From Eledone cirrhosa (lineage: Eukaryota), in the NCBI GenBank assembly GCA_964016885.1, contig OZ024742.1, forward strand, positions 96,658,001 to 96,722,000: DNA of 64,000 nt, in the 5' to 3' direction. This document shows positions 52,371 to 55,388 of the stretch, in pieces. How positions within the stretch are numbered: position 1 is the first letter of the stretch; every line of letters starts with the position of its first letter. A model generated the notes under the pieces. It worked only from the letters and a program-made list of their open reading frames with translations. It was not told where the DNA came from and did no database searches. The position numbers were made by a program, and so were the translations under genes.

Positions 52371-52776
52371 TATATATATATATATATATATATATATATA
52401 TATATATATATATATATATATATATATATATATATATATATATATATATATACATATATATATATATACATATATATATATATAAACAAATAACGAAACG
52501 AAATTAAATTTCGTTTCGTTTGTAACTCACTTTTGTATGACTGACGCTTAAACAATTAAGTTAAAAAATGTACATCTACATATGCATACTGAAATACTAG
52601 TATGCATATGAATACACACACGTATACATATGTAGATGTACCAGGTCTTTCACTGGTTACTTTACTGTGAGTAATCCAGCTATTCTGTATGTAAACACAC
52701 AGACAAACCGGTTTTTAGAGTCATACTGGTTTTCGAGGAAACACCTTTCCTCTATTCTCCAGAAAGCCAGACAAGG

Positions 52777-52821
52777 AATATTGAACTAGTTTCGTTGTTG
52801 TTACAACTCATCAGCAATATT
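52777..52821 (-). ncRNA. Type I hammerhead
   Basis: aatattg CTGATGA gttgt-aaca-acaac GAAA ctag TT caatatt; outer stem ttctccagaaag/ctttctggagaa. Confidence 0.9.
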
Positions 52822-53244
52822 TACCTATCTACCGGCCTTTCTGGAGAATCGTAAAAGCACATATCGTTATATGCTTTTTCTATGAAAATTAGTAGTGGGC
52901 AGACTAATTTGCATAGAGTGTGAGTACGTACCGGTTCAACGGAGACGATAAAAACAAATAACGAAACGAAATTAAATTTCGTTTCGTTTGTAACTCACTT
53001 TTGTATGACTGACGCTTAAACAATTAAGTTAAAAAATGTACATCTACATATGCATACTGAAATACTAGTATGCATATGCATACACACACGTATACATATG
53101 TAGATGTACCAAGTCTTTCACTGGTTACTTTACTGTGAGTAATCCAGCTATTCTGTATGTAAACACACAGACAAACCGGTTTTTAGAGTCATACTGGTTT
53201 TCGAGGAAACACCTTTCCTCTATTCTCCAGAAAGCCAGACAAGG

Positions 53245-53289
53245 AATATTGAACTAGTTTCGTTGTTGTTACAACTCATCAGCAATATT
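53245..53289 (-). ncRNA. Type I hammerhead (unit 2)
   Basis: Identical to 52777-52821. Confidence 0.9.
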
Positions 53290-53563
53290 TACCTATCTAC
53301 CGGCCTTTCTGGAGAATCGTAAAAGCACATATCGTTATATGCTTTTTCTATGAAAATTAGTAGTGGGCAGACTAATTTGCATAGAGTGTGAGTACGTACC
53401 GGTTCAACGGAGACGATAAAAACAAATAACGAAACGAAATTAAATTTCGTTTCGTTTGTAACTCACTTTTGTATGACTGACGCTTAAACAATTAAGTTAA
53501 AAAATGTACATCTACATATGCATACTGAAATACTAGTATGCATATGAATACACACACGTATAC

Positions 53564-54896
53564 ATGAAGAAAATGATTGCACATGCGGTAGGGGCCAGCA
53601 TAAAATTAACCCTTAAGGAACATATGTTCAAATTTAATGGTAAAACATATGCCAAAGAGGAAGGAGCAGCCATTGGTGTTAGCATTGCAGGCGACATAGC
53701 TAACTTATTCATGGTATGGTGGGACAGTAGACTTAAACAAAAACTTAAAGAACAATTAGAAGACAGCTTAACCCTGATAATGTACTCCCGCTACGTAGAT
53801 GATATAAACATCGTAGTTAAGACACCCCCACTAAAGAACAGCCAGGAACTAGAAAAAAATACAATGGAAAGCATCCAGCAAATAGCAAACTTCATCCACC
53901 AGAGCATTAGAGTTACTATAGACTACCCAAGTAGACACCCCAACCATCGATTACCTGTACTAGACACAGAGTTCTGGTTAGATACCATTAACAACCAAAA
54001 ACAAATCCTCCATTCCCATTATGCCAAACCCATGACTTCCAAACATCTGATCCACCGAAACTCGGCCATTTCGGACCATACCAAAATCAACATACTGATT
54101 GCGGATTTGGTACGGGTGATGAGAAATGTGTCCCGCATGTGCAACCCCGAAGAACTAGAGAGACACATACAACACTTCATCCACCGTATGCAGTTCTCTG
54201 GCTACAATCAGAGAGATAGAATCAGAGTGTATAAAGGAGCCAGAACCAAATGGGAAAAAATGGTAAATAATGACATAAATGGGACCTGCCCCTTGTATAG
54301 GAGCAAATTTTGGAATAGAATAGAAAGAACTAGGAACAAGGCCAATAGAATAAACTCATGGTATGATAGCAATAAATACCAGAGTCTTATGTTCATCAAT
54401 ACAACCCCTAGAGGCGAACTAGCCTACAAATTTAGAAGGGCCTTAAATAAACATAAACTCAATATTAAGATAGTAGAAAGACCAGGTACCTCCGTAAAAA
54501 CACTTATTAGCAAGACATACCCGTTCCAAAGACCCTCATGTATAGATAAGAAATGTATAACCTGTAACATAAGCCAAAATATTAACTGTAAAACTAGAAA
54601 TGTAGTGTATAGCATAAGATGTACTGAAGGACAATGTAGAAACAAAAATATAGTGTACATAGGTGAGACAGCTCGTAGTATAGGGGGAACGAATAAATGA
54701 ACACTGGCGAGACCTCCAAGATAATAAAGAATCATCTGTGCTCTACCAACATGCTAAGATAGAACACAGGGGTAGATTAGAGAACATAGAAATAAAAATA
54801 GAATCCACACACAGAAAAGATGCAATGTTTAGGCAAATTACAGAGGCAGTAAGCATAAAAGAATTACAACCAAAATTAAATAGAAAATATGAGTGA
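53564..54896 (+). CDS. Penelope-like RT (5'-truncated) + GIY-YIG endonuclease; one frameshift at ~54685
   Basis: GAAIG..IANLFM, YSRYVDD, LPVLD, CxxxxCxxC, NVVY..C...C..YIGETARS; the shifted frame continues ERINEH...HAKIEH...RQITEAVSI...LNRKYE* (TGA 54894-54896). Confidence 0.92.
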
Positions 54897-55131
54897 AACA
54901 GCAACATCACAACTTACAATTAAGGACAAAATGAAAACACACACACGCATAGAACAAACAACCAACCAACAATAAATAAATAAATAAATAAACAAATAGA
55001 TAAATGAACACAAACACACACAGACACCCGGATGTGGCGCATGCGCAAACTGAGCACACAACACACACACAGAAACAAAATGGCGTAGGATAGAAGAAAG
55101 GAAAGGCACAGAAACAAATAAAGGAATCCCC

Positions 55132-55174
55132 AGTCACTGAAGAGGTCACAGTGTGTGACGAAAGGACTATGACT
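55132..55174 (+). ncRNA. Type I hammerhead in the Penelope-like element 3' region
   Basis: agtca CTGAAGA g-gtcaca-gtg-tgtgac GAAA ggac TA tgact. Confidence 0.85.
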
Positions 55175-55388
55175 ATGTATAAACAACTATCTGGTTGTGG
55201 AACCAACCAACCAACCAGAAATTTATAAGTTTGTAAATTTGTAAATTTATAAATATATAATAAATTGAAGTGAAAGCAACTGGTGCGTGTGTTTCTTATT
55301 GGCAACATGACCCTCCCAAAGTATAACAATATCGGTTTCAACACACGATTTCAGATAAAGAATCTTGCTAAACAAATTCAGAAACGAC

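Follow-up and report, generated by a model that had tools for sequence, protein, structure and literature searches.

The fusion at position 53565 of the window (the whole 64,000-nucleotide stretch of Eledone cirrhosa DNA that was analysed) is a real composite of known parts, in which a retrozyme-type concatemer on the minus strand is joined head-to-head to the remnant of a Penelope-like element (PLE) on the plus strand. On balance, the fusion probably arose by two insertions at different times in one (TA)n tract, with loss of the intervening DNA. The insertion signature of the families involved, and the class of mixed fusions to which this locus belongs, are worth more than the single junction, which is a weak witness.

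The left (TA)n target tract (52371..52483) has two CA interruptions adjoining the insert, and CA interruptions are numerous in the right tract (55388..56017). They are thus common to both flanks of the fusion, and no target-site duplication is readable in (TA)n. The interrupted unit does not resume past 55388, in agreement with the first-pass annotation, and a different, unrelated element follows the right tract.

The concatemer (52484..53565, minus strand) has its 3' 'long' end at 52484, in the left (TA)n, and is 5' truncated at 53565. A tandem-repeat scan of the window found an array at 52480-53565 (period 468, 2.3 copies, 99% matches), which bears out the 2.3-mer proposed earlier, and the copies differ at 2 sites in 1,082 nt. 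Type I hammerhead motifs lie on the minus strand at 52761..52832 (copy 1, with a short palindromic helix III) and 53229..53300 (copy 2, with a predicted cut between 53252 and 53251), their cores (CTGATGA...GAAA-CTAG-TT^) being at 52814 and 53282, respectively. Both were matched by Rfam HH9 (E 3.1e-7) below the gathering score, and no Rfam match over the window was at or above that score; Rfam miRNA matches over TA tracts and hairpins were dismissed as composition artefacts. Hammerheads with a short helix III are already known (PMC4209133). The longest Met-initiated ORF in the 468-bp unit is only 22 aa and the GC content of the region is 0.31-0.37, in keeping with a non-coding, low-GC unit.

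The unit core has 4,893 exact matches genome-wide, and in 2,434 cases the unit's 'long' end lies within TA. There are two fixed 3' ends in the unit family, about 70 nt apart. The optional 'tail' between them (52484..52553, minus strand; approximately 70 nt, with a 13-bp hairpin inside) defines a long arm when present. The hammerhead core is intact in every one of the 79 stored loci that matched over the full length, and stem II shows a compensatory change. When homology to the pLTR of an autonomous PLE was sought among stored loci, the first 41 matches listed belonged to the unit's own family and to a related non-coding one of 470 bp. A 2-nt hammerhead variant seen in the window also occurs in eight other loci, which are not siblings of this one. 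Judged by its sequence features, the unit is a retrozyme-type element: tandem, non-coding, low in GC, dispersed in many copies and with a hammerhead in each unit.

The PLE arm begins with a 5'-truncated ORF (53565..54920, plus strand), corresponding to approximately residues 790-1240 of a natural copy of 1,240 aa. It retains reverse transcriptase (RT) from motif B', the thumb, a CX4CxxC linker and GIY-YIG, confirming the truncated, plus-strand Penelope ORF of the first-pass annotation. The N-terminal RT motifs are missing and there is a frameshift in the endonuclease near 54683; this copy is dead and, being truncated and frameshifted, cannot itself supply enzyme. The 3' region, or pseudo-LTR (54921..55387), terminates in the right (TA)n at the 'long' end of the PLE family, and the PLE 'tail' (55333..55387), which is the 55 nt separating the short 3' end from the long one, codes for the first residues of the ORF. 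A minimal hammerhead-like motif (55132..55174, plus strand; CTGAAGA...GAAA) is conserved in the family, with no Rfam match and a fold z of 0.16.

Intact natural copies of this PLE have ORFs of 1,226-1,240 aa encoding RT, with GIY-YIG at the C-terminus. The protein has a weak RVT_1 match, and HTH_animal, GIY-YIG and RVT_1 are present in its atlas neighbours. The linker upstream of GIY-YIG (CIDKKCITC) fits CX2-5CxxC. By motifs, the protein resembles the Neptune/Nematis EN+ PLEs (PMC8557442), which also have RT with a C-terminal GIY-YIG, two cysteines between GIY and YIG, a CX2-5CxxC linker and DKSG at the DKG position. Family-wide features, namely partial tandems as pLTRs, an inverted 5'-truncated partner, a one-sided tail and a bias to (TA)n, are likewise those of the PLEs in PMC8557442, although the tail is 55-57 nt, the distance between the two fixed 3' ends, rather than 30-40 nt. 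A sister family with 50-63% protein identity has an identical end motif. The coding part of the window's copy occurs in at least 39 other places at 98-99% (best 40 of 2,424 candidates scored) and the PLE 3' motif has 25,130 matches genome-wide. The nearest copies of the two fused elements are 0.2% and 1.3% away, and both families are young and abundant.

The unit and the PLE are unrelated, since their best local match has an E of only 0.73, as had been judged by eye for the 3' region. The idea of the unit as a regular component of this PLE was rejected: 29 longer PLE copies gave no match of ≥ 90% and continue with PLE sequence where the junction would fall, and full-length copies lack the unit.

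At the junction, the unit alignment runs through 53565 and the PLE alignment starts at 53565, giving a 1-nt overlap (T) with no TA tract and no filler. The earlier placement at 53563/53564 is therefore corrected, while its TA-free character is upheld. Both sides are high-copy repeats, and no junction-spanning piece was present among 32 of approximately 9,190 contig pieces, all short (four runs, at most two samples, one study) and too few to be informative, although both points would suit a misassembly of two repeats. However, misassembly is very improbable, as the single nucleotide common to the two sides offers no anchor for a mis-join, nearby long arrays and tracts are cleanly resolved and comparable fusions occur at other loci. 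When the entire fusion was used as the query, none of the 40 candidates scored, of 3,535, was a second locus containing both unit and PLE parts. A search for the second haplotype via the left flank, itself a repeat, gave nothing above 94% among 40 scored of 4,280 candidates.

Both families usually insert head-to-head in (TA)n with one long and one short 3' end. Among tract-free head-to-head pairs, 56 of 57 were long/short for the PLE (the other short/short, with no long/long; 117 loci) and 37 of 39 for the unit (one long/long, one short/short; 83 loci), one of the unit pairs (L105) being possibly two inserts. Arms at one locus were more similar than the between-locus mean in 15/15 PLE pairs and 31/31 unit rows (30 loci), and opposite arms often carry common minority alleles. 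Gene conversion between arms may lie behind these shared haplotypes. Nevertheless, the strict long/short rule and the shared arm haplotypes suggest that in ordinary head-to-head pairs, PLE palindromes among them, both arms derive from a single RNA with two priming sites, a proposal that is testable in vitro.

Because the two families have this insertion signature in common, there is good structural support for the view that the retrozyme is moved by PLE machinery. The unit appears to behave as a passenger of PLEs, itself non-autonomous, in the way proposed for retrozymes, because its pairs match both the tail and inverted partner of PLEs and the two-start pattern seen in vitro. In such a scheme the PLE RT-endonuclease would nick (TA)n, which is self-complementary, on both strands, and cDNA synthesis on one RNA would be primed at two positions separated by 55-75 nt; a retrozyme RNA (circle or multimer) borrowing the enzyme in trans would yield a concatemer. 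In vitro, Poseidon_Ac has two internal RT start sites that bound the tail, and an AT-rich target (PMC11167929). The families here resemble it in the AT-rich target and would do so in the two starts bounding a tail and in two-strand cutting and extension. However, the Poseidon_Ac start sites are described as without target homology or strand preference (PMC11167929), whereas unit and PLE ends have AT microhomology to (TA)n and an almost exceptionless long/short pairing.

In the fusion at 53565 both 3' ends are long, so it departs from the one-long-one-short pattern. The claim that it has the same geometry as the palindromic insertions is thus not supported: those are long/short with arms sharing a haplotype, and this is long/long. 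Long/long is rare in homo-pairs (0/57 PLE, 1/39 unit) and common from separate inserts, which favours sequential insertion. A later insertion would have landed beside an earlier one, its free cDNA end being joined into the resected neighbour; alternatively, a later deletion between neighbouring palindromes could have removed the inner arms and the tract between them. The TA cluster around the fusion holds at least two further inserts (56013-57156 and 57881-58803). PLE 5' ends are joined TA-free to unrelated flank, LINE bodies included, in 8/37 copies and, in a further set, one PLE 5' junction (L199) has 12 nt in common with its SINE-like neighbour. At 3/115 unit ends, the element directly across the tract is this PLE. 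Combining the 8/37 flank joins with the 3/115 tract neighbours, roughly 14 such junctions are expected genome-wide from the sequential route, a rough figure from small counts, and only part of them would be head-to-head.

A single integration of two RNAs, as the first-pass annotation had suggested, is a fair possibility but less favoured than sequential insertion. Two RNPs (or a dimer with two RNAs) would each prime at the long site, on opposite strands of one cut, and their cDNA ends would be ligated. Consistent with this, both 3' ends are intact and face outward and both elements are young. For a PLE protein from an anole, cleavage and extension of both strands have been shown and dimer formation is predicted (PMC11167929), and L1 inserts from two templates in opposite orientation have been observed in cells (PMC11702581). 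Moreover, 10/13 single-arm PLE inserts have the long end, so that long/long is what two primary primings independent of each other would produce, and mixed fusions to PLE ORFs recur (L229, L243 and L129). In opposition, the remaining mixed fusions are long/short and not long/long, about ten such junctions would be expected from the sequential route alone, the site is an insertion hot spot and (TA)n gives no readable target-site duplication.

Not all of the evidence fits two separate insertions. In an unselected sample, the first 82.7 Mb of C1, the unit was fused to a PLE ORF at 2 of 71 long ends (95% CI 0.3-9.8%), a rate that looks higher than the sequential prediction and counts against it. 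In the five other mixed fusions with ends that could be classed (L229, L243, L129, L076 and L251) the ends were long/short in 5/5 (p 0.03 at 50:50), as in one-event products, again counting against the sequential route. The clean junction was also counted against it, as a 1-nt overlap is inside the ordinary homo-pair range, and no intermediate allele turned up. The overlap, sought as junction microhomology, is present but does not discriminate: homo-pairs span -31 to +10 (scored in 9/21 PLE and 14/22 unit junctions). A difference in age would suit sequential insertion and the PLE arm leans towards being the older: it has 8 private sites over 1,355 nt, whereas the concatemer has 2 internal differences over 1,082 nt. 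However, the difference is not significant (p 0.11-0.16), and private PLE sites can also come from the source copy, which was likewise counted against two separate insertions.

It is improbable that one cDNA switched onto the antisense strand of the other RNA or cDNA. Such self-priming on an antisense template has been proposed for head-to-head PLE structures (PMC3846280), and short inverted or foreign pieces occur at the junctions of other fusions (L076, L229 and L243), where they fit either deletion or template switching. At 53565, by contrast, there is no hairpin or filler, microhomology is at most 1 nt and both outer ends appear target-primed.

The composition of the other unit fusions shows that the junction does not name the mobilising enzyme. 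Fusion rates rest on samples: the 83 other unit loci examined comprised 43 plus 40 that were chosen because no partner end was listed for them, and odd cases are for that reason over-represented. In 10/83 the unit runs, with no TA between, into ≥ 200 nt of other sequence. The unit is head-to-head with a second PLE family with a long CX4CxxC linker at L229 (the label 'Poseidon-like' for this partner was dropped, given that linker) and joined to a Hydra-type PLE with a CxCX5C linker at L243 and L129. It is also joined to a LINE 3' end (L260), in tandem with an L1-like body (L134) and to other repeats, satellite or flank (L099, L113, L124, L102 and L106); the labels RTE-like and L1-like for the LINE partners at L260 and L134 are our assumption. 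Partners and orientations are thus mixed, which was counted for the sequential route.

Fusion to the PLE of the window was found at 0/83 other unit loci. The search for further chimeras therefore succeeded for unit and PLE in general, and not for this pair of families; identification of the PLE at 53565 as the likely enzyme is not sustained, given TA-free fusions with two other PLE families and with LINEs. What is supported is that the unit is no part of this PLE and that its family bears the PLE insertion signature. The two partner PLE families cannot be aligned with the window's PLE. All three are similarly abundant (25,130, 23,143 and 13,763 motif matches), and 0/3 PLE fusions with the window's PLE is compatible with partner choice by abundance (p 0.21). 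The window's PLE in turn has other hammerhead elements as partners, at L076 and, in a tandem join, at L061. At L061 (5040-5920, oriented) a 470-bp retrozyme in the same sense is followed by short filler and then the 5' end of the PLE family. At L172 (approximately 5130-5830) the partner of a short arm of the window's PLE is an RT fragment from a different PLE family, inverted internally and itself ending in TA.

Retrozymes, tailed inverted PLE inserts, hammerheads with a short helix III and the idea of PLE-driven retrozyme mobility are all already known. Metazoan non-LTR retrozymes co-occur with PLEs, their proposed mobilisers, the argument resting on co-occurrence and pLTR similarity (PMC7229834; 10.64898/2026.07.22.740005). 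The unit resembles metazoan retrozymes (PMC7229834) as a low-GC non-coding tandem unit with one type I hammerhead each and dispersed multimers. Li et al. 2026 (10.64898/2026.07.22.740005) describe homology of retrozymes to the pLTR of an autonomous PLE; to the adjacent PLE the unit has none, and it differs from the published retrozyme case in showing PLE insertion anatomy (long/short ends, head-to-head arms and (TA)n) together with fusions to PLE ORFs. The PLE end signature in the unit family is thus direct, at thousands of sites and without homology to the adjacent PLE. The fusion differs from the PLEs in PMC8557442 in that the inverted partner is a foreign RNA and there are tails at both ends. 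It is like the L1 two-template inserts (PMC11702581) in being a 5'-to-5' cDNA fusion from different RNAs with little or no microhomology, although those are new insertions with a known empty site, and here the (TA)n target gives no readable target-site duplication. In literature titles and abstract openings, with few subscription journals covered, there was no retrozyme-PLE head-to-head fusion and no long/short pairing rule for retrozymes.

Mixed fusions are impossible by simple fold-back, so their census can separate models. Tentatively, two-ended PLE integration might load two RNAs, so that retrozymes and several unrelated PLE clades would be co-integrated in single events. If this were true, approximately 70 retrozyme-PLE fusions genome-wide would be a fossil map of enzyme-retrozyme pairs and the fusion at 53565 would belong to a two-RNP (long/long) class.

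Several other elements in the window have similar architecture. At 12778-13941, between (TA)n flanks, there are 3 tandem copies of a 312-bp unit together with an inverted arm, and each unit has a hammerhead-like core; this is a second retrozyme-type family with the head-to-head build of the 468-bp unit. The 470-bp hammerhead family (42522-43005 and 43837-44812) has two 3' ends in TA; it is distantly related to the 468-bp unit (approximately 70-78% in parts) and very common in fetched loci. Between 42118 and 42453 there is a short palindrome of a Hydra-type PLE 3' end (hammerhead at 42218, tail approximately 90 nt, long/short ends). To the right of the fusion, the TA-flanked insert at 56013-57156 has a 591-bp period, an inverted left arm and PLE-type anatomy; no hammerhead core was found in it, nor any other ribozyme class by Rfam. 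Within the next TA-flanked insert (57881-58803) there is an inversion, and HH9 matches weakly at 58642-58714 (minus strand; E 0.032). To the left, an internally deleted Tc1-like DNA transposon (51779-52372; Tc3 HTH match) adjoins the left TA tract with its right end, and is preceded by another high-copy repeat with inverted partners (51180-51780).

Individual PLE loci have features of their own. The PLE ORFs of L062, L072 and L077 encode an asparagine/threonine-rich stretch, approximately 200 aa in length and upstream of RT, resembling the N-rich inserts of rotifer Penelope elements (PMC3846280). In loci L063-L093 the TA-tract interruptions are, by eye, often alike on both sides of the insert, possibly a trace of target duplication or reiterative synthesis. 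PLE arms at L173 and L184 have clustered A-to-G changes, the pattern that ADAR would be expected to leave by editing a palindromic transcript ahead of its reverse transcription.
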